Source: an uncultured Caldisericales bacterium (GTDB lineage Bacteria > Caldisericota > Caldisericia > JAAYUI01). Taken from it: DNA of 64,000 nt. A program made the translations under genes and the position numbers. The DNA lies in contig CAZTGD010000001.1 in NCBI GenBank assembly GCA_964613055.1, positions 6,977-70,976 on the forward strand, written 5' to 3'. Of the stretch, positions 10,328 through 35,715 are shown one piece after another. Within the stretch, counting starts at the first letter, position 1, and each line of letters opens with the position of its first letter. The notes beneath the pieces are model-generated. The model was given only the letters and a program-made list of their open reading frames with translations, did not search any database and was not told where the DNA came from.

Positions 10328-10351
10328 GGGGGGCCGTCTAAAAAGCCCCCC
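10328..10351 (-). terminator. GC hairpin terminator (GGGGGGC-N10-GCCCCCC) downstream of the 10421..13558 gene
   Basis: 7-bp G/C stem. On the minus strand it is followed by UGUUUGUAUUUAUU. Lies 70-90 nt after the stop of the large surface-protein gene. Confidence 0.45.
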
Positions 10352-20104: not shown

Positions 20105-21577
20105 ATGGATGACGCTATGAACGAAGAGAGAGATCATACCAAAGGGAATATCCTGAAGAACCTGATAAGCCTTGCCTGGCCAGGTATTGCGGGAAGATTC
20201 TTTGAGAATCTTCATGGGATAGTTGATCTTATCTGGATCGGTATGCTTGGTGGGGCAATGGCTACACAAGCTCAAGCCGCGCTTGTTATATTTGGTGTGG
20301 TCTTTGCTTTCGTGTTTATATTCAACAACCTTTTCGGTCTAAGCTCCGTGTCGATCATTTCAAGGTATTGGGGAGAGAAAAACTACAAAAAAGCTGAGTG
20401 GGCGGCAGAACAAACCATACTGTTCAAGTTTGTTTTTGGTGTGGCAGGTGCAATACTGACATTGATCCTCCTGGAAACCTTCCTTTCTTTTGCTGGAGCT
20501 AGTGCGGAACTGTCGACAGAGTCGGGTTATTCGGTAGTCGGTATTGCCCTTGTATACGGTAGAATAATCCTCATCGCAACACCGTTCTGGTTCACCTACT
20601 TCACATTCAACACAATTTTCAGATGTACATCTGATGCCGAAACGGGAATGTTTCTGACCATTATGTCGGTCATAATAAACGTAGTGTTAGATCCACTGAT
20701 GATCCTTGGGATAGGAGTTTTTCCCAAAATGGGGATTGCAGGTGCCGCGTGGGCAACTGTTATTGCGCAGATGTGTTCGTTTATTCTTGGACTGATACTT
20801 TTATCAACAGGCTATAAGTTCCGATTTGTCCAAACGCGTTTTTCAATTGGAAAGATCATTTTACCAAAATTGATTCTTTTAAAGAGAGGAATAAAAATAA
20901 GCTTGCAAGGTCTGTTAAAACCAGATATTTCAATGATGCTTAACATGATGAGAATTGGTACTACCCCGGCATTGTCAAACCTTTTCAACACTGGATCGGG
21001 TATGATATTTATGAATATTGTGAGCAGTTATAATAACGATGCCCTCCTCTCAGCGTTTGGAATTGGTATGAGGCTCATCGGTTTAGTTAATATGCCACTC
21101 CTTGGTCTTCAGCAGGCGGCGGGTTCGCTTGTTGGTCAGAATCTGGGAGCTAATTCCCCTTACAGGGCTGAAAAAACAGTATGGTATTCTGTTTTGATAG
21201 CACTCAGTTTGTCTGGTTCAATGGTTGCAATATCATACCTTTTTGGAGGGCACATCTACTCTGTGTTCAATCGAGAAGCTGAAGTCATTGCCTTTGGTTC
21301 TTCTCTGCTTGGATTGGCTATGCTACAAAATACAACCTTTTCCATAAAATTCATGATAACATCGTCATTTGAAGGTTCAGGTTACACATTGTGGCCAATG
21401 ATATTTGACACATTAGCAACCTGGCTTGTGTTGTTACCGATCCTTTATTTTACAATCGTGGTCTTTAAATTCGGATACGAGTGGATTTTCATATCAGGTA
21501 TAATTGCCAACAGTGTGCAACTCTTTGTGAGTCTTATGCTTATGAGAATGGGAAGATGGAAGACCGCAAGGATTTGA
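20105..21577 (+). CDS. MATE family efflux transporter
   Basis: 12 TM segments. N-terminal ILKNLISLAWPGIAGRFFENLHGIVDLIWIG is typical of MatE domains. Confidence 0.8.
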   Translation: MDDAMNEERDHTKGNILKNLISLAWPGIAGRFFENLHGIVDLIWIGMLGGAMATQAQAALVIFGVVFAFVFIFNNLFGLSSVSIISRYWGEKNYKKAEWAAEQTILFKFVFGVAGAILTLILLETFLSFAGASAELSTESGYSVVGIALVYGRIILIATPFWFTYFTFNTIFRCTSDAETGMFLTIMSVIINVVLDPLMILGIGVFPKMGIAGAAWATVIAQMCSFILGLILLSTGYKFRFVQTRFSIGKIILPKLILLKRGIKISLQGLLKPDISMMLNMMRIGTTPALSNLFNTGSGMIFMNIVSSYNNDALLSAFGIGMRLIGLVNMPLLGLQQAAGSLVGQNLGANSPYRAEKTVWYSVLIALSLSGSMVAISYLFGGHIYSVFNREAEVIAFGSSLLGLAMLQNTTFSIKFMITSSFEGSGYTLWPMIFDTLATWLVLLPILYFTIVVFKFGYEWIFISGIIANSVQLFVSLMLMRMGRWKTARI

Positions 21578-21668
21578 GAGTGCACACAATCAATCTGAGG
21601 CAATTTCTATTCATTGTTTTCTCCTTTTGTCAAAACACCCAAGCTAAGAACCATCATTATCCAGATAA

Positions 21669-22256
21669 TCATTCTCTGTATATACTAATTAATAGCTTTC
21701 CAATTCTAGTTAGTGGTTGTCCGTATTTTCCACTTGCTATTATTCCTGAACCAAGCAATCTAGACATCATTGGGTCATTCAAATAATAATTCATATCATC
21801 ATTATTAATTATGAATTGGGCATTTGTCATTTTGTCTATTTTGACAATATCTTCATAAAAACATCTGTCTATTGCATACCCTACTTCAAAAAACTGATGT
21901 TCAGTAATCCTACCCATAATCAGATATTTAAAAGCTTTGCCAAGTAAGACTGCTTTTTCAACACAATCTAATCTATCAATTAATATCATCATTTTCTCAC
22001 AAATTTCTACTGATTTCCCACTATCCAACTTTTTAATATACAATTCTCGATCTTTTTGGGGAATTGTATCTGGATTACCCATGAATCCAATCCATTTCTT
22101 AAAAAATGCTCGTCTTAAACATTTTTCTACAAGTTCATAACCACTTGAAGCAATTGAACCAAGATAAGGGATCGCTGTCAATACTGTTTTTATACATTCT
22201 TTGACTATACAACTATCAGTTATTGGATTGTTCAGTCTATTATCAGATTCCTTCAT
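21669..22256 (-). CDS. Hypothetical 195-aa protein in the AT-rich island, co-oriented and 15 nt downstream of the Type IIG R-M gene
   Basis: Very AT-rich ORF with no recognisable motif. Lies immediately 3' of the R-M gene on the same strand, so co-transcription is likely. Confidence 0.5.
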   Translation of the reverse strand: MKESDNRLNNPITDSCIVKECIKTVLTAIPYLGSIASSGYELVEKCLRRAFFKKWIGFMGNPDTIPQKDRELYIKKLDSGKSVEICEKMMILIDRLDCVEKAVLLGKAFKYLIMGRITEHQFFEVGYAIDRCFYEDIVKIDKMTNAQFIINNDDMNYYLNDPMMSRLLGSGIIASGKYGQPLTRIGKLLISIYRE

Positions 22257-22271
22257 CTAAGCTCCTTATCC

Positions 22272-25200
22272 TTATTTATAAGGCAGTTTTGAAAGTTCAT
22301 TGACAAGCTTCACCGTTTCTAGTGAGACGGTTACCACCTTGCCAATGAGGTCAAATATATACCTTTCATTGCCGTCAAAGTTGTTTGGGTCTTGTTTTAT
22401 TCCTGACCTTTTATCTGTTTTGACCCTGTATTGGTCAACAATCCATTCTAAAGCAGAGCGGTTACCCAGCTTGTATTCATAGACTTCTGGTGGGATGCCT
22501 GCAAGTGTTATTGCTTTGTTGTAGACAAGTGATTTCTTATCCTTTGTAATTTTCATCTTGTCTACGGTGAACTTTACATCTGGGAATCTATCTTTATCAA
22601 TAACCTCTTCAAGCTCATATATGTCGGCGTTTTCATAGTCCAGGTGAATATCAGCGAGTCTTTTGCCAATCGAACTGAAGCTCCAGAAGTCTGGTGCAAA
22701 GGGTATTCTTGGTAATGATCCTTTCAGGTTCTTCTCATAGTCCTTGCGGTAATCCTTGTGGTGTAGCATTGCATAGATGTAGTAGAAGATGTCCCATTTG
22801 GTTATTTGCTCCGCTTCACAGGGAGGGTGGACAGGAGTATCATTTAAACCCCCCTGATTTGACTTCGTCAAATCTTCCCCCCTCGAAGAGGGGGGCTTAT
22901 TGTGTGCTTCGTCGGTTCCACTCGAAGAGGGGGGCTTAGTGTCTTTGTAGTGGTTGTGGAACAGTTTCAGGGTGTGGTCGGTAATGTTTTCACGTCTTCC
23001 TGTGCCGTCCTTGTTGTAGGTGTAGAAGGGGAAGCATTGTGAATCACCTGTAAAATGTAAATCAGGTATGGTCTTCGATATTAATGACTGGAATGGTTTC
23101 TTGTTTCCAACCGCTGTTGTGCATATCACCCTGTTCTCTTCCTCGGATGCGGATGTTGGAAAGAAACGATGTTGTTGGTATCTTCTTTGATTCAATAGAT
23201 GATCAAAATATAGATTCACTCGACAATAAGGTCTATAAATACTTTTTCTAAAACCGTTCTCTGATAACCTAATTTGAATATTTTTCTTGAGAGATTCTTT
23301 TAGTCTAACCGTCCACTTTATCTTGCTCTCATCATTTGATAAAATCTTTTCTAATTCAATATCACCAATTTGTCTGTGTGGTTGCTTCTCTAATTTTATT
23401 CTTTCAGTTTCATATGTTGAATAATGCAACATAAGATTTGTTTTTAATTCTTGTTGTGAGAAATTGTATACCCATATATCTCTACCTGTTGCAACTCCTC
23501 TTGAGTAAAGATTGAAGATGGTATCGCAGTCCGGTTTGCCCTTCTTGCGCTTGTCACCCATCAGGGGGTAATCCTCAAAGTCCTCCGCCATACCCTCAGT
23601 CAACCACAGGTGACGCTTGCTGGGTGTCAGTTTCTTCCAGTTGACTCCTTTTAAATCACCCGCCTTGTATACAATTTCAAACTTTTCAATCCTTGTAGAT
23701 CTGAAAGGTACGTCAAAGTACCAGATTCCCTTTTCTTTTGATGCTTTGTTCTTTATGAAGAATGAAATGGATATACCAACCATTGCTGACAGACCAAACA
23801 CTGTATGCTTTTCACCCAATGGTATACCATCTCTCATTGAGTCTTTCCGTATGTTACCCTTTAGATCCAACACATACAGCTTATCAAAATCCTTCTCCAG
23901 GTGCTTTCTCATCCCGTCAAAAGCGTATCCATCGATGAAGCTGTTGTTGGTGATCATGGCAATAACACCCTCATCACCGATTCTCTCTGATGCCCACTTG
24001 ATGGCTTTTACATATGGATCATAAATTGCATTCTTTTTTGTCGCTCTTGAGTCTTTCCCAAAGGTATTTCCGATAGCCTCCTCTAATTTGGGATATTTCC
24101 TGTTTTTATTATTATCCATCTCATTCTGCTGATTTGAGTTGTATGGAGGGTTACAAATGACAACAAAGATTGGTGATTCTGACTGTTTTATGACTCTCTG
24201 TGCGTTCTCATCATTGAAGTACAGACCACCGTGTTCTTCAAACATCTGAAAGGTGTCGGCAAAGCAGATGCCTGGGAAGGGCTCTCTTTCACCCATAGCA
24301 TCGTAGTATGCGTGCTCTATGTTGATGTTTGCTATGTAGTATGGCATCAGCTGTATCTCATTACAGTGAAGCTCCTCAAGGTATTTTTGTTTTAGTCTGG
24401 TAGGGTTAATCTTCTCTATCACGTTTACTATGAAGTTTCCTGTTCCCACAAAAGGATCAATAATGTGGACTTGTTCACTACCTAGACCCTGCTTCTTGTC
24501 AAACTCTGTCTTGAGTATCTCGTCTACTGACCTGACCATGAAGTTAACCACAGGTTGTGGTGTGTAGACTATTCCAAGTCTGTCTGCTGATTTTATTGCC
24601 CAGCCTTGAAAGAAACGCTCAAAGATATCGTTTAGGAAGACCTGTTTTGCTTTGAAATCCTCCAGCTTATATGCCGCTTTCACTATCTGATCGTAGAAAT
24701 GGTCAAGAGAGCCTAAGAACTCTGTTTTGTTGAAGTAACCTTTGGTCATTGAATCGATTACGCTTTCAATGTTCTTTGCTATTATGTTTCGACTTGTAAA
24801 GCTCTTAAGGTCAAATATGCTCTCCAGTATCCTCTCCGTAAGCAGGTGCTGTACAATCATCTCTTTGATTGCGACACGGCTCACATTGGGATTGATTGAT
24901 TTTGTGCAAAGTTTATAGAACTCATCAAATCTTTTTATGAAAAGCTCGTTTGTTTGTTGTGATTCCTCAATCTTTTCAAGCAGACCCTTGGCGAGTATTG
25001 GCATACGTTCATCAAAGGTGTCAATAGCCTCTTCCCATGTTTTCCTGTCAAAATGTTCATAGTTGAAGAACTTTTCAAGTACCTTGATGAAACTCTCTGG
25101 GTTGTCTGCTATATCTTCATCATAGACCTTTTTCTTTCGCTGTATTAGAACAGCACGCTTTGGTTGCCAGAAGAGTATATTGAAATCTGGATAGTCTTTT

Positions 25201-25559
25201 GTGAGAATCTTTTTTTCTATCTCTTCATCCAGGTCATCATCGTCATCCTTTGATTCCATATACCCCATGGGGAGAATGCCTACTTTTGATTCTAGAAAAC
25301 TGCCATCAGGGATGTTGCCGTTTGGTAGAGATTTCTTCGGTTCAAAGTTCCATTCAACTTGCTTTGAACAGTATGAAAGTAGGTTTAGGAAGATTGGCTC
25401 TACTACACCTTCAGATGGATTGTTGTTTGTACGAGTCTGAAAATATATCTCATACTGCCTCTTCATATCCCTGTAGTACTGCTCAATGGGTTTGTCAGAA
25501 GGTTTTAGGCTGAGTTTGCTCTGTTCATTCATACAACCACTCCCATTTATAGTTTTCAA
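22272..25559 (-). CDS. Type IIG (MmeI-like) restriction-modification enzyme: N-terminal PD-ExK-like nuclease + gamma-class N6-adenine DNA methyltransferase + target-recognition/C-terminal domain (alternative: BREX PglX-like MTase)
   Basis: Candidate nuclease motif IPDGSF...VGILPMGYMESK (PD...ExK), resembling the D..ExK catalytic motif recalled from MmeI (not verifiable here). MTase motif I IIDPFVGTGNFIVNV. Motif IV VVICNPPYNS. C-terminal FYYIYAMLHHKDYRKDYEKNLKGSLPRIPF matches the MmeI/PglX-type C-domain. No BREX partner genes nearby. Confidence 0.65.
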   Translation of the reverse strand: MKTINGSGCMNEQSKLSLKPSDKPIEQYYRDMKRQYEIYFQTRTNNNPSEGVVEPIFLNLLSYCSKQVEWNFEPKKSLPNGNIPDGSFLESKVGILPMGYMESKDDDDDLDEEIEKKILTKDYPDFNILFWQPKRAVLIQRKKKVYDEDIADNPESFIKVLEKFFNYEHFDRKTWEEAIDTFDERMPILAKGLLEKIEESQQTNELFIKRFDEFYKLCTKSINPNVSRVAIKEMIVQHLLTERILESIFDLKSFTSRNIIAKNIESVIDSMTKGYFNKTEFLGSLDHFYDQIVKAAYKLEDFKAKQVFLNDIFERFFQGWAIKSADRLGIVYTPQPVVNFMVRSVDEILKTEFDKKQGLGSEQVHIIDPFVGTGNFIVNVIEKINPTRLKQKYLEELHCNEIQLMPYYIANINIEHAYYDAMGEREPFPGICFADTFQMFEEHGGLYFNDENAQRVIKQSESPIFVVICNPPYNSNQQNEMDNNKNRKYPKLEEAIGNTFGKDSRATKKNAIYDPYVKAIKWASERIGDEGVIAMITNNSFIDGYAFDGMRKHLEKDFDKLYVLDLKGNIRKDSMRDGIPLGEKHTVFGLSAMVGISISFFIKNKASKEKGIWYFDVPFRSTRIEKFEIVYKAGDLKGVNWKKLTPSKRHLWLTEGMAEDFEDYPLMGDKRKKGKPDCDTIFNLYSRGVATGRDIWVYNFSQQELKTNLMLHYSTYETERIKLEKQPHRQIGDIELEKILSNDESKIKWTVRLKESLKKNIQIRLSENGFRKSIYRPYCRVNLYFDHLLNQRRYQQHRFFPTSASEEENRVICTTAVGNKKPFQSLISKTIPDLHFTGDSQCFPFYTYNKDGTGRRENITDHTLKLFHNHYKDTKPPSSSGTDEAHNKPPSSRGEDLTKSNQGGLNDTPVHPPCEAEQITKWDIFYYIYAMLHHKDYRKDYEKNLKGSLPRIPFAPDFWSFSSIGKRLADIHLDYENADIYELEEVIDKDRFPDVKFTVDKMKITKDKKSLVYNKAITLAGIPPEVYEYKLGNRSALEWIVDQYRVKTDKRSGIKQDPNNFDGNERYIFDLIGKVVTVSLETVKLVNELSKLPYK
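22842..22934. repeat. GC-rich structured in-frame insertion inside the R-M gene: 17-bp direct repeat (CTCGAAGAGGGGGGCTT x2), four C6/G6 homopolymer tracts, nested hairpins
   Basis: CCCCCC-TGATTTGAC-TTC-GTCAAATC-TTCCCCCC-TCGAAGA-GGGGGG ... TCGAAGA-GGGGGG. Much higher GC than the surrounding roughly 30% GC gene. Encodes the Pro/Ser/Gly linker KPPSSSGTDEAHNKPPSSRGEDLTKSNQGG. Confidence 0.5.
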
Positions 25560-25629
25560 ACCTGTTATCCATTACAACTGCCCATTATATAGCCACAAAT
25601 AATACCAATCAAATCTCTACTCTTTCATC

Positions 25630-25647
25630 GTATACCAAAGGGTATAC
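25630..25647. promoter_or_regulatory. Operator-like palindrome GTATACC-AAAG-GGTATAC in the R-M gene promoter region
   Basis: 7-bp inverted arms, 70 nt upstream of the R-M start codon (25559). Shares arms with the second palindrome 56 bp away. Confidence 0.35.
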
Positions 25648-25685
25648 ACAATATAACAGTTTGTAATACATTCCTTTTATATTAT

Positions 25686-25703
25686 GTATACCCATGGGTA
25701 TAC
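25686..25703. promoter_or_regulatory. Perfect 18-bp palindrome GTATACCCATGGGTATAC between the wHTH gene stop and the R-M gene start
   Basis: Perfect dyad with the same GTATACC arms as 25630-25647. A candidate dimeric regulator binding site. Confidence 0.35.
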
Positions 25704-25732
25704 TGTAATAGGGATGATGAATTACATAGTTA

Positions 25733-26257
25733 CTATCTGTGATTGATGATATTAGAGATGTCATAGGTGTTTGCTATTCCCGTTCTTCCTTTTCTGCTGT
25801 GTATACCCTTTGTGATTATTAGATTGTATTCACTTTCAAGTGACTTAATTGCTTTGTTGGGTCCTGCTTTTGAATAGGTTCCTCTGGTACTGGGTTGAAG
25901 GTTCATGAATTCACAGATCTGTTCAAGACTTAGGAAACAGCTTGTATTGTTGAATTGATGGCAGACTGAAAGGATGATACGAAGGATCTTGTGTTTGTAC
26001 TTATCACCTTTGATATTAAAGTATGAGGTGTTTATCTTTGGTCTGTGACATATTGATTGGATGCTGTTGTAAACATTGGTTAGGTATTGGTATCTGTAGT
26101 TAGAAAGCTCTGAAAAGTGACCAGGCTGATACTTGTCAAATACGTCTTTTATATCATCCAGTGAGTAACCACAGGTATCAAGACGGGTCATAACCGCGGC
26201 TTCTGCCTCTGATCTTGATGGATATGATTTGAAGGTGCTTAGAGTCTTTATATCCAA
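25733..26257 (-). CDS. Winged-HTH protein, possibly a truncated or non-canonically initiated replication-initiator/regulator-like gene of the island
   Basis: C-terminal wHTH-like segment LSLEQICEFMNLQPSTRGTYSKAGPNKAIKSLESEYNLI. The table ORF starts with TTG. The same frame stays open upstream to a TAG at about 26629-26631 (roughly 125 more codons, including a CSGCG motif) with no ATG, GTG or TTG in between. Confidence 0.4.
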   Translation of the reverse strand: MDIKTLSTFKSYPSRSEAEAAVMTRLDTCGYSLDDIKDVFDKYQPGHFSELSNYRYQYLTNVYNSIQSICHRPKINTSYFNIKGDKYKHKILRIILSVCHQFNNTSCFLSLEQICEFMNLQPSTRGTYSKAGPNKAIKSLESEYNLIITKGIHSRKGRTGIANTYDISNIINHR

Positions 26258-26658
26258 AGGGATTCCTTTTATAGCTGTTTTCAGGTTTTCAAGTGCTGTG
26301 TATACCCAAGGCTCTGGTTTGAGTTTTAAATACCGAGGGAGTACAAGTGATGTGTTTGATGATGTTGAAGTGCTGGGATTAACAAGGTCAGATATGTCTG
26401 ACCAATTTATCTCAGGTGGATTTATAAACCCGTTGTACCAGTCGTTGTTCCAGTAATATTCAAAGCTTCCAACTTCTGAGTTTGGTACAAGAGAATAGCA
26501 GTTTCTGATACGTGCCTCTCCCTTACCAACATCTGGTCTCCAATTGGTTACGGTTATGTCAGCGGGTTTTGTTAAGTTGTCAAGTCCACAGCCGGAACAT
26601 TGCGGCTCATCCTCGATGAGTTGAAATCTCTAGCATTCGTATTATCATCTAGCACTAA

Positions 26659-29145
26659 GTGCGACACTTTTTAGACACGCCGTTACTAATACGCTTCACG
26701 GGGTGCTTGCTGTTGGTATGCGCAGTAGGTATTGTGAGTGTTATTGGTGTATTGATACCTAGTAATAGTGCAGAAGCTGTAAATATTACCGATTATTACT
26801 ATTCTGACTTTAAACCCGTCAAGATTGTTGAAAATGATCATATCCAGAATATGCCATCCATTCATGGTAATTATATATCCTGGCTCGATTCAAGGTTAAA
26901 CGATAAGGCAGGTAGGATATTTCCGCGCAACTACATGATGGACATAAGAACGAGAGAAGAGAGGGTTGCAAACTCCTTTGCCAGGAAATCAGGTGCGATG
27001 ACTCAGTACAGGAACAAGATAGTATGGGCTGAAAATACTGACAGATTAAGGGAGAACAACTTCGATATTAAGTGCTACGATTTTAAAAGTGACGAAATTT
27101 CAACCGTGTGTAGCAACAAAACTATGCAATCGAATCCTCAGATATCTGATGATTACATTATATGGAATGATATGAGAGACTCCGATGTTGGTTCTGATGA
27201 TCCATCACAATTTGCTATTTATGGTATCCCCACAGAAGGAGGTGATGAGTTTCTTATAAAGGATCATGAAACACCTGGTATTGCAGAGTTGTTTGGTGAT
27301 TATATTATTTTATCAAAAGAAAATGAGGATAGAGGAGATTATGATGTATACCTTTTAATTCCGTCAAGTTCAAAAAGTATACCCATATGTACAGCTAAAG
27401 GAGACCAGTTTAACCCAGCAATAATCAACGATAATTTCGTAGTCTGGGAGGATACTCGAAATGCTCCTGAATTCGGTTTCGACAGACCTGGGGATATCTA
27501 TGGTTATTCGATAAATAATCACAAAGAGATTTTTATATCCATTGATAAAGCCAGAGACTATGGTTTGGTTGTGGGAGAGGAGCGGTACTGCCTTTGGTTC
27601 AGAGAGTCTGGTGATTCTATTGGTGGTTTGGCAAACACAATTCACGGTTATGATACCTTTGCTCAAAAGGAGTTTACAATTTGCGATAAACCAAGCGACA
27701 ATAGAAAGGCGGTTGTTGGAGAGGATTGGATTGTATGGGAAGTGCATACTCATACAGAATTTGGTTCTGACCTGATGGCATACCATATTGAATCAGATAA
27801 AATCTATACCTTATGTAAATCATATGGCGATCAAATGAATCCAAGCATTTATAGGAACCGAGTTGTTTGGGAAAATCACAGCAATTCCAATACAGAAGAA
27901 GTAAGCATCTGGTATGCAGATCTTGACATTCTAGCAAGTAATAAATCACTCAACCAGCAATGGGGGTTTTCTCACCGACCCATTTGGAGTCAATGTCGAG
28001 CAGATGATACTAATAGCGGTATGGGTTTTGCTGAGATTAGGGATCTTGATAGATTTAAAATGAATCAACAATGGAAGACAAAGCTTAATGGTTCAATCAC
28101 ATCTTCAGCATGTTTCGACAGAAGCTGTTTTGCATACTTAGGGACCTCACAGGGAAAGGATGGTTATTTCTACAAAATATCAGCCTATACGGGTGAAATA
28201 ATCTGGGAAAAAGCTGTAGAAGGAGGTGTTAGATCCTCTCCGGCTATATACAATAACCGCGCTTTCTTCGGTACCTCTTCCGGTAAGTTTTATTGCCTCG
28301 AAACCGATTATGGTCAAGAAGTTTGGAGTATACAACTTGATGATGCCATTGACACCTCGCCAACGATTTTTATCAGCGAGGTGGATCATTACCCCATGGT
28401 CATATTCAGCTCTAACAATAAATCATTGTATATGTATAGTGTTAGAGGAAACAAACCAAACAAGCAATGGGAAATTATGCTGGATGGATGGGTAAAAGGA
28501 ACAGTTGCAATCGATTATAATAGATTCTTCAGAGTATCAAGAAGAGAACCAGTAAAAAAGTATATTTATGCTGGATTGTCCAGCAACAGGATTGTGTGTA
28601 TTGATCCGGCAACAGCACAAATAGTCGCATCCTTTCCAACGGACTCTTCAATTAAAACCCCCCCAATCGCAATAGGACCTACTTGTATCGGTACTTCTGG
28701 TGAAGGCACGCTGTATTGTTTTGATTTCTGTGGATTGGGAAGGTCTCCAGAGCTTCACATTGAGGAAAAAACATATCACAGATCAATGTCCTCTCCAGTC
28801 TATGATCGAATCAACCAGATCCTATGTTTTGAAAGCAGTTCAGACTCAATATCATTTATAAATGGGAATAAAAAGTGGACGACTACCATCAGTAAAACTC
28901 TATCTGCTTCACCTTCTCTGTCGATTTCTACACGCAATGATGGTTCATATATGATTATTTCATCGTTTGATGGAAGTCTGTTTATTTTTAACACTGTAAA
29001 TGGTGAAATTCTTTGGAACAAGTCGCTTGAAGCCAGGGTAACGAGTTCACCAAGCATACTGGATACCGGATTTGTCTCGATAATTATAGGTTCAAATGAT
29101 TCTTATCTGTATTGCTGGGGCCAGAGACCCATCTATTCAGATTAA
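26659..29145 (+). CDS. Secreted beta-propeller repeat protein (N-terminal xxVWxDxR-type blades, C-terminal PQQ-like repeats)
   Basis: GTG start. Signal-peptide-like MRHF...LLLVCAVGIVSVIGVLIPSNSAEA. Repeated blade motifs YISWLDSRLND, IVWAENTDRL, YIIWNDMRDSD, FVVWEDTRNAPEF, WIVWEVHTHTEFGSD and RVVWENHSN. C-terminal PQQ-like GGVRSSPAIYNNRAFFGTSSGKFYCLETDYGQEVW. Confidence 0.65.
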   Translation: MRHFLDTPLLIRFTGCLLLVCAVGIVSVIGVLIPSNSAEAVNITDYYYSDFKPVKIVENDHIQNMPSIHGNYISWLDSRLNDKAGRIFPRNYMMDIRTREERVANSFARKSGAMTQYRNKIVWAENTDRLRENNFDIKCYDFKSDEISTVCSNKTMQSNPQISDDYIIWNDMRDSDVGSDDPSQFAIYGIPTEGGDEFLIKDHETPGIAELFGDYIILSKENEDRGDYDVYLLIPSSSKSIPICTAKGDQFNPAIINDNFVVWEDTRNAPEFGFDRPGDIYGYSINNHKEIFISIDKARDYGLVVGEERYCLWFRESGDSIGGLANTIHGYDTFAQKEFTICDKPSDNRKAVVGEDWIVWEVHTHTEFGSDLMAYHIESDKIYTLCKSYGDQMNPSIYRNRVVWENHSNSNTEEVSIWYADLDILASNKSLNQQWGFSHRPIWSQCRADDTNSGMGFAEIRDLDRFKMNQQWKTKLNGSITSSACFDRSCFAYLGTSQGKDGYFYKISAYTGEIIWEKAVEGGVRSSPAIYNNRAFFGTSSGKFYCLETDYGQEVWSIQLDDAIDTSPTIFISEVDHYPMVIFSSNNKSLYMYSVRGNKPNKQWEIMLDGWVKGTVAIDYNRFFRVSRREPVKKYIYAGLSSNRIVCIDPATAQIVASFPTDSSIKTPPIAIGPTCIGTSGEGTLYCFDFCGLGRSPELHIEEKTYHRSMSSPVYDRINQILCFESSSDSISFINGNKKWTTTISKTLSASPSLSISTRNDGSYMIISSFDGSLFIFNTVNGEILWNKSLEARVTSSPSILDTGFVSIIIGSNDSYLYCWGQRPIYSD

Positions 29146-34068: not shown

Positions 34069-34145
<77 letters not shown>

Positions 34146-34152
34146 TTGGTGT

Positions 34153-34226
34153 GTGCCCGTAGCTCAGTTGGATAGAGCATCTGCCTTCTAAGCAGAGGGT
34201 CGGGCGTTCGAGTCGCCCCGGGCACG
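34153..34226 (+). tRNA. tRNA-Arg (anticodon TCT)
   Basis: Acceptor GTGCCCG/CGGGCAC. Anticodon stem TCTGC/GCAGA with loop CTTCTAA. T-loop TTCGAGT. No encoded CCA. Confidence 0.8.
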
Positions 34227-34245
34227 TATATCATTGGCATGGTAT

Positions 34246-34320
34246 GGGCCCATAGCTCAGATGGATAGAGCGGCGGTCTCCTAAACCGCAGGTCGCAGGT
34301 TCGACTCCTGCTGGGCTCAC
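34246..34320 (+). tRNA. tRNA-Arg (anticodon CCT)
   Basis: Acceptor GGGCCCA/TGGGCTC. Anticodon stem GCGGT/ACCGC with loop CTCCTAA. T-loop TTCGACT. Confidence 0.8.
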
Positions 34321-34335
34321 CATCGAAAAGAGGGA

Positions 34336-34410
34336 GCGCCTATAGCTCAACTGGATAGAGCGACGGACTTCGGATCCGTAGGTTGCGGGTTCGACTCCTG
34401 CTGGGCGCGC
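34336..34410 (+). tRNA. tRNA-Arg (anticodon TCG)
   Basis: Acceptor GCGCCTA/TGGGCGC. Anticodon stem ACGGA/TCCGT with loop CTTCGGA. T-loop TTCGACT. Confidence 0.75.
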
Positions 34411-34428
34411 CATTTGTATAGTTGATGT

Positions 34429-34504
34429 GGGTTGCTAGCTCAATTGGTAGAGCATCTGACTCTTAATCAGGCGGTTGGGGGTTCGAGTCCCTTGCAACCC
34501 ACCA
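34429..34504 (+). tRNA. tRNA-Lys (anticodon CTT), encoded CCA
   Basis: Acceptor GGGTTGC/GCAACCC. Anticodon stem TCTGA/TCAGG with loop CTCTTAA. 3' terminal ACCA. Confidence 0.8.
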
Positions 34505-34519
34505 CCTAAGCGGTAAGAA

Positions 34520-35491
34520 ATGGTTGATATTAGATACATACACTGGAAAAAGAGCATTCGTCGGTTGATGGATTTTGGAAGACGAGAGATCCTTCGCGGC
34601 AAGAACGAAAAGATTATAGTCGACAGGCTTCAAGATGAAATTCGAGATCCCCTAAAAACAGCAGATGTAATTGTTATAGCAATAAAAGGTGCATCAATGG
34701 TTGGATATTGCACTGGCATATTGTTGGACGAGGGAATAACAATAACTTCTCTCATTGTTTCGCCTACAGTTGATCGACTTAAGGTTACACCTCAACTCGT
34801 ATTTTCTGTAATCAACCAACTCTCCAGAAAGGGCAAGTTCAAGTTTATCCAGATGGAAGTGCCCTGCATTAATTCTGATTATATTTCAGCTAGCATGAGA
34901 CAGTTTGGGTTTATGATATTCTCTCAGCTTGAGATGTTTATCACTCATTATAATCCAAAACCAGAAAAGCATATTCCAGGTGTCTCTCTTGATAATTGGA
35001 GAATAGATACCGAGAATGAAGCCTCACTCGTTATCGCCATATCAGACCTTGGCGAAGAGGAGATGAGAAAGGATATTCAAGAACGAGAACCCAGGCAAAG
35101 GTGGTTGGAGGAATGCAAGCTTCTTTCTGGAGGCGAACTAGACAAAAATCTTTGCCATCAAGCCTTCATTGGCAACGAAATGGTTGGAATGATAGTCGGT
35201 TTGATTAGAGACAGGAAGATGGGTAGAATAGAGGGAGTTGGTGTTATTTCGGCAAGGAACAGAGAGCGAATAGAGAAGGTCTTAGTAGAACGTTCACTGG
35301 TTGGATTTGCTGAACATGGCATCAAACTTGTCAGAACCATTATCCCGATGACCAAGAAGAAAACTATAGATACACTGAAAACTATAGATTTTACTTCAAA
35401 TATCTATTGCCCCGATCTTCTTCTGCTTTCCTCAGACCAGAGCTGGGATGCTGTCTGCAAGGAAGCTCTCAGTGTTAACCTTGAAAGTTAA
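34520..35491 (+). CDS. Hypothetical protein, possible tandem GNAT-fold acetyltransferase
   Basis: Two halves each have a GNAT-like core (VIAIKGASMVGYCTGILL...RKGKFKFIQMEV and MVGMIVGLIRDRKMGRIEGVGVISARNRERIEKVLVERSL). Weak evidence. Confidence 0.4.
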   Translation: MVDIRYIHWKKSIRRLMDFGRREILRGKNEKIIVDRLQDEIRDPLKTADVIVIAIKGASMVGYCTGILLDEGITITSLIVSPTVDRLKVTPQLVFSVINQLSRKGKFKFIQMEVPCINSDYISASMRQFGFMIFSQLEMFITHYNPKPEKHIPGVSLDNWRIDTENEASLVIAISDLGEEEMRKDIQEREPRQRWLEECKLLSGGELDKNLCHQAFIGNEMVGMIVGLIRDRKMGRIEGVGVISARNRERIEKVLVERSLVGFAEHGIKLVRTIIPMTKKKTIDTLKTIDFTSNIYCPDLLLLSSDQSWDAVCKEALSVNLES

Positions 35492-35536
35492 CGCCTCATC
35501 CTTATACTCACTTGGAGCAGTTTGAAAAATGAGTGT

Positions 35537-35622
35537 GCGAGGGTGGCGGAATTGGTAGACGCGTTGGATTTAGGATCCAGTGAGCTTAGCTCGTGCGGGT
35601 TCAAGTCCCGCCCTTCGTACCA
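35537..35622 (+). tRNA. tRNA-Leu (anticodon TAG), long variable arm, encoded CCA
   Basis: Acceptor GCGAGGG/CCTTCGT (two G-U pairs). Anticodon stem TTGGA/TCCAG with loop TTTAGGA. Variable stem GAGC/GCTC. 3' terminal ACCA. Confidence 0.8.
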
Positions 35623-35640
35623 ACACTATAACTTGTTGAT

Positions 35641-35715
35641 GCGGGAGTAGCTCAGTGGTAGAGCACGACCTTGCCATGGTCGGGGTCGCGGGTTCGAATC
35701 CCGTCTCCCGCTCCA
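35641..35715 (+). tRNA. tRNA-Gly (anticodon GCC), encoded CCA
   Basis: GCGGGAGTAGCTCAGTGGTAGAGCACGACCTTGCCATGGTCG... Anticodon loop TTGCCAT. 3' terminal TCCA. Confidence 0.85.

Follow-up and report, generated by a model that had tools for sequence, protein, structure and literature searches.

This work concerns a block of about 5.0 kb (~21.6-26.6 kb) in a 64-kb stretch of DNA from an uncultured Caldisericales bacterium (contig CAZTGD010000001.1, positions 6,977 to 70,976), hereafter called the window. On one side the block adjoins the gene of a MATE transporter and on the other that of a PQQ/beta-propeller surface protein, and it is inserted, acquired DNA. The explanation that we regard as highly probable is that the inserted segment carries a self-sufficient, DrdV-like single-chain restriction-modification (RM) enzyme, together with a truncated plasmid-type gene and its palindrome, and that a further gene, orf195, is an unrelated neighbour. 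The block had been singled out in an earlier note, made from the sequence alone, and its three co-oriented open reading frames (ORFs), the motifs quoted from them and the palindromes were all found at the positions claimed there. Coordinates are positions in the window, and for genes on the minus strand "upstream" means higher coordinates; the features are collected in Table 1.

The inserted segment and its enzyme

The nearest relatives of the MATE protein are found in Caldisericia (64-66% identity in OY771555.1 and in the CBDUSO01 metagenome-assembled genome (MAG), 45% in three others), and the host is a Caldisericia-type bacterium. In five of five related Caldisericia genomes (L005-L009), the MATE homologue is followed by a beta-propeller homologue about 100 nt further on, and the flanking order SSF, hypB, hypA, MATE, beta-propeller, L21, 437-aa gene, argF is largely kept in all five and fully kept in the two closest relatives. 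As the two genes adjoin in every one of these relatives, the three-gene block represents an insertion in this lineage, and the synteny comparison that the earlier note had proposed as a check upholds its view of an island placed between the MATE and surface-protein genes. Insertion is further supported by the truncation of a gene at the block's right edge and by the composition of orf195, in which the GC content at third codon positions (GC3) is only 21.5% (z = -3.8 against 39 ORFs of the window).

Composition otherwise gave a more mixed picture than the GC content of about 30% previously ascribed to all ORFs and spacers of the block. That value holds for orf195 (30.6%) and for the 173-nt spacer 25560-25732 (31.2%), but not for the enzyme gene (40.1%), orf174 (38.1%) or the spacer 26258-26658 (41.6%), with the whole block at 38.6% and the window at 41.9%. 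The GC3 of the enzyme gene is 44% (z = +0.9); only orf195 is thus deviant among the island genes, and the enzyme gene is not flagged as foreign by composition alone. Moreover, four other contigs, one from a JGI metagenome and three from other metagenome assemblies (two of them labelled microbial mat), have the island sequence with 100% identity, so that no strain variation was seen among these four assemblies.

In agreement with the earlier note, which had seen no integrase, transposase or flanking tRNA, profile searches of the three island products (Pfam, PADLOC, NCBIfam) returned no integrase or transposase family, and no tRNA gene is present in 15.0-34.0 kb; in the entire window, tRNA was the only Rfam family matched. 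No flanking direct repeats or att-like sites were found at the island edges, and the left and right junctions share no direct repeat. Seven tRNA genes (Pro, three Arg, Lys, Leu, Gly) are clustered at 34069-35715; the cluster lies about 7.5 kb beyond the right edge of the island, does not adjoin it and shows no sign of having served as an integration site.

We then focused our attention on the enzyme. Three lines of evidence, namely Pfam, PADLOC and the match to DrdV, agree with the earlier proposal of a single-chain nuclease-methyltransferase of the Type IIG class. Pfam returned Type_ISP_C (E 4.4e-93, aa 681-1071), ISP_coupler (PF22240, E 1.4e-14, aa 190-300) and N6_Mtase (E 5.7e-12), while the PADLOC model REase_MTase_IIG matched with E 4e-230; except for one weak match to mad2 (MADS), all PADLOC matches are to REase_MTase or MTase models. 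The best match in the PDB is DrdV (7lo5, 1029 aa; E 7e-175), with query residues 76-875 and 919-1089 aligned. None of the residues D85, E102, K104 and K117 varies among 13 aligned family members, and they align to D64, E79, K81 and K94 of DrdV, which are the metal ligands and lysines of its PD-ExK site (bioRxiv 10.1101/2021.01.06.425610). The likewise invariant E50 probably corresponds to DrdV E25, and the methyltransferase motifs DPFVGTGNF and NPPY are invariant in the same 13 members. The reading frame is intact across 1086 codons, with all nuclease and methyltransferase catalytic residues retained. Judged by its sequence, the protein is therefore a DrdV-like Type IIL RM enzyme, Type IIL being a subclass of Type IIG, and it is apparently intact.

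The start codon deserves a comment, as the listed ORF extends to a TTG at 25559 (1095 aa). Homologues and the JGI and NCBI gene calls start at the ATG at 25532 (M10), which is preceded by a GGGAG site, and the 1086-aa product is for this reason the more likely one. More than 6,700 homologues were found, most of them of about 1025 aa and aligning over their full length with 45-63% identity, and the enzyme is in this sense an ordinary member of a very large, already solved family. The recognition domain is part of the same chain, and no separate methyltransferase or specificity gene is present in 17-31 kb. Moreover, the homologues P0003 (the closest one, 63% identical), P0005 and P0004 stand alone amid housekeeping genes, which indicates that the enzyme gene is self-sufficient.

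DrdV, a Type IIL enzyme from Deinococcus wulumuqiensis (PDB 7lo5/7lvv), has the same order of domains (PD-ExK nuclease, helical connector, gamma-class N6-adenine methyltransferase, recognition domain), is similar in size (~1030-1090 aa for the two enzymes) and is likewise encoded by a stand-alone gene. The two sequences are clearly diverged, as judged from a HMMER alignment that gives no overall identity figure. The window enzyme differs from DrdV by two inserts, one N-terminal and of 7 aa, the other of 43 aa, hairpin-encoded and located at DrdV position 842/843, and its gene is preceded by the truncated 356-aa gene and the nested palindrome described below. LlaGI and LlaBIII, which belong to Type ISP, have coupler, methyltransferase and recognition domains homologous to those of the window enzyme (E 3e-148 and 5e-136), but they additionally possess a Mrr-type nuclease and a RecA-like ATPase motor, both of which are missing here. 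In the Type ISP-like profile of PADLOC, which has 1646 positions, no more than positions 719-1639 are matched, which means that the enzyme has no motor domain; the matches to LlaGI and LlaBIII start at their residues 583 and 747, only about 190 aa precede the coupler in the window enzyme, and no helicase was found by Pfam in it. Membership of Type ISP was rejected on these grounds, the SF2 ATPase motor being absent, and a translocation-collision mechanism cannot apply to an enzyme without a motor.

Part of the earlier classification did not survive, as the enzyme had been assigned to an "MmeI/PglX type". Like the window enzyme, members of the MmeI family, also Type IIL, combine a PD-ExK nuclease at the N-terminus and a NPPY-bearing methyltransferase of the gamma class in a single chain, and methylation of one strand, which protects DNA in that family (PMC2731913), would do so here as well, but the recognition domain found here is of the Type ISP/DrdV type. 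The profile search suggested by the earlier note gave no match: none of MmeI_N, hel, Mtase, TRD or C is among the Pfam matches with E <= 0.01, and no MmeI is among the PDB matches with E <= 0.001. Similarly, PADLOC returned no PglX match, and the neighbours are only the MATE gene, orf195, orf174 and the beta-propeller protein gene, so that membership of BREX as a PglX was rejected too. The coupler, methyltransferase and recognition domain of this DrdV-like enzyme are instead of the Type ISP type.

DrdV works as a single protein, has been solved by cryogenic electron microscopy, recognizes an asymmetric site, methylates one strand and cuts at a fixed distance in a reaction stimulated by multiple sites (bioRxiv 10.1101/2021.01.06.425610). 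By analogy, the window enzyme would bind a short asymmetric site and would slowly methylate one adenine on one strand, thereby protecting the host DNA. It would cut both strands at a fixed distance downstream only once several site-bound molecules have assembled, as would occur on unmethylated incoming DNA.

Two further observations were made at the loci of homologues. P0005 (L019) is preceded by a HTH_3 (XRE) gene and a short Peptidase_M78 (ImmA-like) gene (L019 5163-5954), which may be another type of regulator pair for this enzyme family. In addition, two loci of RM homologues (L023 10175-12688 and L024 9719-12300) have a stretch of about 2.5 kb in common that is 79% identical and runs from the 3' end of the RM gene through a 106-aa ORF and more small ORFs, a cargo unlike orf195. 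Elsewhere in the window, an intergenic hairpin GGGGGGC...GCCCCCC (10328-10351) between two minus-strand genes resembles an ordinary terminator.

Table 1. Features of the inserted segment and of its borders, in window coordinates; residue numbers refer to the enzyme.
Feature	Position	Strand	Description
MATE transporter gene	20105-21577	+	
Left junction	21578-21668		91-nt convergent spacer, MATE stop codon to orf195 stop codon
orf195	21669-22256	-	195 aa
Enzyme (RM) gene	22272-25532	-	1086 aa from ATG 25532; 1095 aa if read from TTG 25559
Target-recognition domain Type_ISP_C (PF18135)	22347-23519	-	aa 681-1071; aligns with the C-terminal parts of DrdV and LlaGI
In-frame insert PPSSSG...CEAEQ	22806-22934	-	43 aa, residues 876-918, loop of the recognition domain
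Gamma-class N6-adenine methyltransferase core	24141-24458	-	motif I DPFVGTGNF 24432-24458 (aa 368-376); motif IV NPPY 24141-24152 (aa 470-473)
ISP_coupler helical connector (PF22240)	24660-24992	-	aa 190-300
Further nuclease residue K117	25209-25211	-	
PD-ExK nuclease motif PDGSFLESKVGILPMGYMESK (PDGSF...GYMESK)	25248-25310	-	D85, E102, K104
Further nuclease residue E50	25410-25412	-	
Best RM promoter-like site TTGATT-17-TATAAT	25584-25612	-	consensus match only; 17 nt downstream of the palindrome block
Nested 74-nt inverted repeat	25630-25703		two 18-bp palindromes, GTATACCAAAGGGTATAC and GTATACCCATGGGTATAC
orf174	25733-26257	-	174 aa from TTG
Start-less upstream continuation of the orf174 frame	26258-26629	-	
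Fourth copy of the 15-nt motif, TGTGTATACCCAAGG	26297-26311	+	40-54 nt upstream of the orf174 TTG start, within the extended frame
Right junction	26620-26658		homology to the 356-aa gene stops here; beta-propeller promoter-like site TTGAAA/TATCAT (26621-26648) follows
PQQ/beta-propeller gene	26659-29145	+	828 aa

The upstream gene and the nested palindrome

The gene found upstream of the enzyme gene is orf174, for which no profile match was obtained and for which a word-indexed homologue search returned only orf174 itself. Its frame remains open for about 125 more codons upstream, to 26629, with no stop codon and with no ATG, GTG or TTG. When extended in this way, the frame matches a full-length 356-aa gene on another contig (L024:5798-6868), with 297 aligned positions of which 60% are identical (tblastn 9e-112, query residues 2-292). 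That gene has the same orientation as the RM homologue P0008 (54% identical) and is found directly upstream of it. The L024 contig is an unclosed sequence of 37 kb that also encodes ParA, ParB, Abi_2 and a RHS toxin. Compared with that gene, the window copy is missing the first ~54 residues and is degenerate in the next ~30, with indels where L024 has CVSRRGYHHFIKIKN (alignment A3), so that the start-less continuation is homologous to residues ~55-185 of the 356-aa protein, its 5' end being degenerate. With its N-terminal residues missing or degenerate relative to the L024 copy, orf174 is read as what remains of a gene that lost its 5' part at the right edge of the island; the alignment identifies it as the C-terminal 174 codons of a truncated 356-aa gene.

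The earlier note had called this a winged-helix-turn-helix (HTH) gene. The gene is there, but nothing significant was found for the 356-aa protein in Pfam, PHROGs, PDB, plasmids or phages, and the assignment draws on two sub-threshold matches to the same C-terminal region, Phage_rep_O (E 0.18) and HTH_36 (E 0.031, in the L024 homologue); a winged HTH is plausible but unproven. Primase-polymerase-like motifs picked out by eye in the N-terminus of the 356-aa protein (DLE.D, GYHHF and GEARIRNCYSLIPNS) were confirmed by no profile, and a search of metagenome and viral contigs with alignment A3 yielded no further loci. The start-less upstream part also contains, at 26386-26403, a perfect palindrome with a 7-bp stem, GGTCAGATATGTCTGACC, scored as terminator-like on both strands by the scan.

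Between orf174 and the enzyme gene, the two GTATACC-N4-GGTATAC palindromes that had been reported were located at 25630-25647 and 25686-25703, where they make up the outer portions of a nested inverted repeat. GTATACC was counted 22 times in the window, compared with an expected 3.5, and a longer 15-nt motif, TGTGTATACCCWWKG, has four copies that all fall within 25636-26311, when 0.5 would be expected in the entire window. As single-stranded DNA, the repeat has a folding energy of -17.9 kcal/mol (z = -5.9). In L024, the same nested repeat (z = -4.7) follows right after the stop codon of the 356-aa gene, and it is the best-conserved stretch when the spacers of the two loci are aligned; the inner spacing of both halves changes jointly, from N4 in the window to N3 in L024. 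In both loci a promoter-like site lies 6-17 nt beyond the palindromes, the arrangement in L024 having been judged by eye. Upstream of RM homologues without the 356-aa gene (L018, L019, L023) the palindromes are absent, which indicates that the palindrome element goes with that gene, and a scan of metagenome contigs for the palindrome pattern gave no match. Most likely, the palindrome is a binding site of the C-terminal HTH part of the 356-aa protein. As to its role, it is about equally likely to be a controller-type operator for the RM promoter or a leftover replication or origin element of a plasmid.

The first of these roles implies a controller module made up of the 356-aa gene and the palindrome, in which the HTH part binds the palindromes by the -35 region and sets the timing or level of enzyme expression, in the manner of C proteins, and in which the truncated 174-aa product may still act as a regulator. 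This is a reading that we can entertain only tentatively. The order gene-palindrome-RM has been kept in two loci at ~55-61% protein identity with the palindrome as the best-conserved DNA, the palindromes end 6-17 nt before the promoter-like -35 in both and are missing where the 356-aa gene is missing, an extra copy of the motif lies upstream of the orf174 start codon, and another RM homologue has a HTH_3 gene upstream. Nevertheless, the HTH assignments are sub-threshold, only two loci are involved, a single-chain enzyme has less need of a delay switch, and the copies at 25798 (KGIHS) and 26297 (EPWVY) are coding and may merely reflect conserved peptides. Known RM systems with C proteins resemble the present locus in having an upstream, co-oriented gene, here a candidate for HTH, and two palindromic sites, here putative ones, abutting the -35 region. 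However, the candidate regulator here would have 356 aa (174 aa in the window), far more than the known C proteins, to which it is unrelated, and the sites, which are predicted ones, follow the candidate regulator gene rather than precede it. A small controller of the HTH_3 type was rejected, as neither orf174 nor its 356-aa homologue has a HTH_3 or C-protein profile match.

The second role would make the 356-aa gene and the palindrome the replication module, an initiator and an origin-like hairpin, of a small RM-carrying plasmid, and the island a decayed plasmid fragment without any control over RM; this too we consider possible but somewhat doubtful. It is in line with the ParA, ParB and Abi_2 encoded by the L024 contig, with the resemblance of the weak HTH matches to families typical of replication initiators (Phage_rep_O, HTH_36), with the capacity of the long inverted repeat to fold as single-stranded DNA in both loci, and with the truncation and degenerate N-terminal region of the chromosomal gene copy. 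Its difficulties are that the 356-aa protein has no significant match to a replication or primase family in any of the collections searched, and that the plasmid status of L024, an unclosed contig that carries a RHS toxin gene, is unproven. Under the explanation that we prefer, the 356-aa plasmid-type gene would have travelled with the enzyme gene and lost its 5' part, and the conserved nested palindrome would have come along with it, now to be found just upstream of the promoter-like site of the enzyme gene.

The downstream gene orf195

The 15-nt spacer reported between the enzyme gene and orf195 is present and carries an AAGGAG ribosome-binding site; since the co-oriented orf195 begins so soon after the RM stop codon with a ribosome-binding site of its own, the two genes are probably co-transcribed. 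A word-indexed homologue search with orf195 retrieved only itself, but an exhaustive HMMER scan revealed a family of 590 clusters (E <= 0.001) of proteins of about 200-240 aa, which are 20-30% identical to orf195 (alignment A2). The comparison with defence-system families that the earlier note had recommended was carried out, and orf195 has no match in PADLOC, Pfam, NCBIfam or PHROGs, and thus no profile match to a described defence or abortive-infection family. Likewise, 51 aligned members of the family gave no consistent Pfam or PADLOC match, only scattered single weak ones, and the family profile found nothing meaningful in the PDB, its two low-scoring partial matches being to a protein A fusion. 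Modelling with AlphaFold2 from the single sequence was useless (predicted local distance difference test (pLDDT) 42), while the model obtained with alignment A2 reached a pLDDT of 84. The latter is predicted to be all-helical and, unexpectedly, to have a winged-helix-like C-terminal part, and in BFVD it matched one unnamed viral protein over its full length and nothing else. Based on these results, orf195 probably encodes a DNA-binding protein.

The contexts of the family vary widely. An unrelated Type IIG enzyme has a member about 1 kb downstream of it (L020), and others are found beside a Gabija-like OLD-TOPRIM/UvrD pair with a C5 methyltransferase and a MutH-like gene (L021), in a mobile region with a primase (L022) and upstream of Dam methyltransferase fragments (L010). 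They also occur on plasmids of Anabaena and Synechococcus (L015, L026), on an Agrobacterium plasmid between traA and mobilisation genes (L017), and on a Paenibacillus plasmid (L016), where an integrase gene is near and a small restriction endonuclease gene lies two genes away, 1.5 kb upstream of the family member. Further members sit by a FRG-domain gene in ~110-kb phage-plasmid-like replicons of Klebsiella, Enterobacter and Citrobacter (L025). No paralogue arrays were seen, and no locus has more than one copy. Most relevant here, an orf195-like neighbour is present at none of the four close RM homologues examined, three of which have neither of the island neighbours. Since the family contexts vary and no such neighbour accompanies these homologues, orf195 has to be regarded as cargo of separate origin and no conserved partner; what its sequence and relatives point to is cargo of mobile elements and defence islands. 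The gene, with its different composition, would have come from elsewhere, and would be a neighbour of the enzyme, not a required partner.

These results bear on the alternative in which the three genes form one defence system, where the Type IIG enzyme has orf195, and perhaps also the upstream HTH protein, as its accessory or abortive-infection module. The probable co-transcription of orf195 with the enzyme gene, the family member in L020 and the members by the Gabija-like pair with its C5 methyltransferase, by the Dam fragments and by the small restriction endonuclease gene would all fit such a system. Against it, the GC3 of orf195 (21%, versus 44% in the RM gene) speaks for a separate origin, no parallel is offered by the four close RM homologues, members of the family are also found alone amid housekeeping or plasmid transfer genes, orf195 is without a PADLOC, Pfam or abortive-infection match, and DrdV works as a single protein; we consider a three-gene system quite unlikely. 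The undescribed accessory or abortive-infection partner proposed in the earlier note is therefore not borne out, given that three of four RM homologues do without either neighbour, that the orf195 family usually lives apart from the enzyme family, and that the upstream gene is a truncated remnant.

Two side observations concern the spread of the family. In Caldisericia, a site beside 4HBT thioesterase, CoA-binding and DXP synthase (DXS) genes is variable: in OY771555 it is occupied by an orf195-family gene standing alone (L014 6001-6591), and in the CBDUSO MAG by the RM homologue P0003 (L018 6001-9309). Moreover, orf195-family genes are fixed in the ~110-kb IncFIB phage-plasmid-like replicons (L025 5974-7700, Klebsiella pKp46564-1, and about 90 similar plasmids), where the orf195-family and FRG-domain genes lie on the strand opposite to the replication genes and resemble an accessory (moron) pair.

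Recognition-domain inserts and the significance of the segment

The 43-aa insert in the recognition domain (residues 876-918) has no counterpart in DrdV or LlaGI. Its DNA is built of two 39-nt units in tandem that hold GC-rich hairpins; in one unit lies a perfect hairpin, CCCCCCTC-TTC-GAGGGGGG, translated as PPSSRG, which is the sole one of its kind in the window; four of the nine G/C runs of at least 6 nt in the window fall in 22849-22934. Close relatives have similar in-frame hairpins ("PPSKGG") both in this loop and in one or two others (L018 8679-8725; L019 7821, 8736 and 8808), of the form CCCCCC..GGGGGG and encoding PPS(K/S)(R/G)GG, and in P0004 and P0007 the recognition-domain loop that bears the 43-aa insert in the window enzyme holds an entire DUF559 nuclease domain with P/G-rich linkers. 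As relatives carry hairpins or DUF559 there, the loop appears to tolerate insertions, and the insert was not taken as a sign of inactivation; the hairpin and DUF559 inserts may represent an in-frame mobile hairpin or domain cassette. That the enzyme no longer restricts, having been reduced by the insert or by other changes to an orphan methyltransferase or to an inactive protein, is very improbable, because the tandem GC-hairpin insert within the recognition domain and the already decayed upstream partner gene, which would suit such a loss, are countered by the intact 1086-codon frame with all its catalytic residues, by the relatives with inserts in the same loop and by the identity of the sequence in four independent assemblies.

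Overall, the explanation of the block as an inserted segment with a self-sufficient DrdV-like enzyme, a truncated plasmid-type gene with its palindrome and an unrelated neighbour has to be weighed against several points. The activity and specificity of the enzyme are inferred from its sequence, and the 43-aa insert could impair its function, even though relatives tolerate larger inserts, including DUF559, in that place. The mechanism of insertion was not found, there being neither flanking direct repeats nor a recombinase gene. The 356-aa gene with its palindrome is known at only one other locus, so that its conservation rests on two sequences. Finally, a looser link of orf195 to RM is possible, as the family member in L020 lies about 1 kb from a different Type IIG enzyme and others (L010, L016, L021) are near methyltransferase or defence genes.

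A bolder interpretation, in which the 356-aa gene, the palindrome and the DrdV-like gene form an undescribed module of RM control or mobilisation, and in which the orf195 family consists of undescribed defence or anti-defence genes working with or against RM, appears rather unlikely to us. The enzyme itself is useful mainly as a likely new specificity from Caldisericota, a poorly studied phylum. Beyond it, the segment offers three leads: a conserved palindrome and 356-aa gene upstream of two diverged RM genes, which may be a regulator or a plasmid origin; a widespread, uncharacterised 195-aa family on mobile elements; and the GC hairpins and DUF559 domains inserted in-frame into surface loops in this enzyme subfamily.

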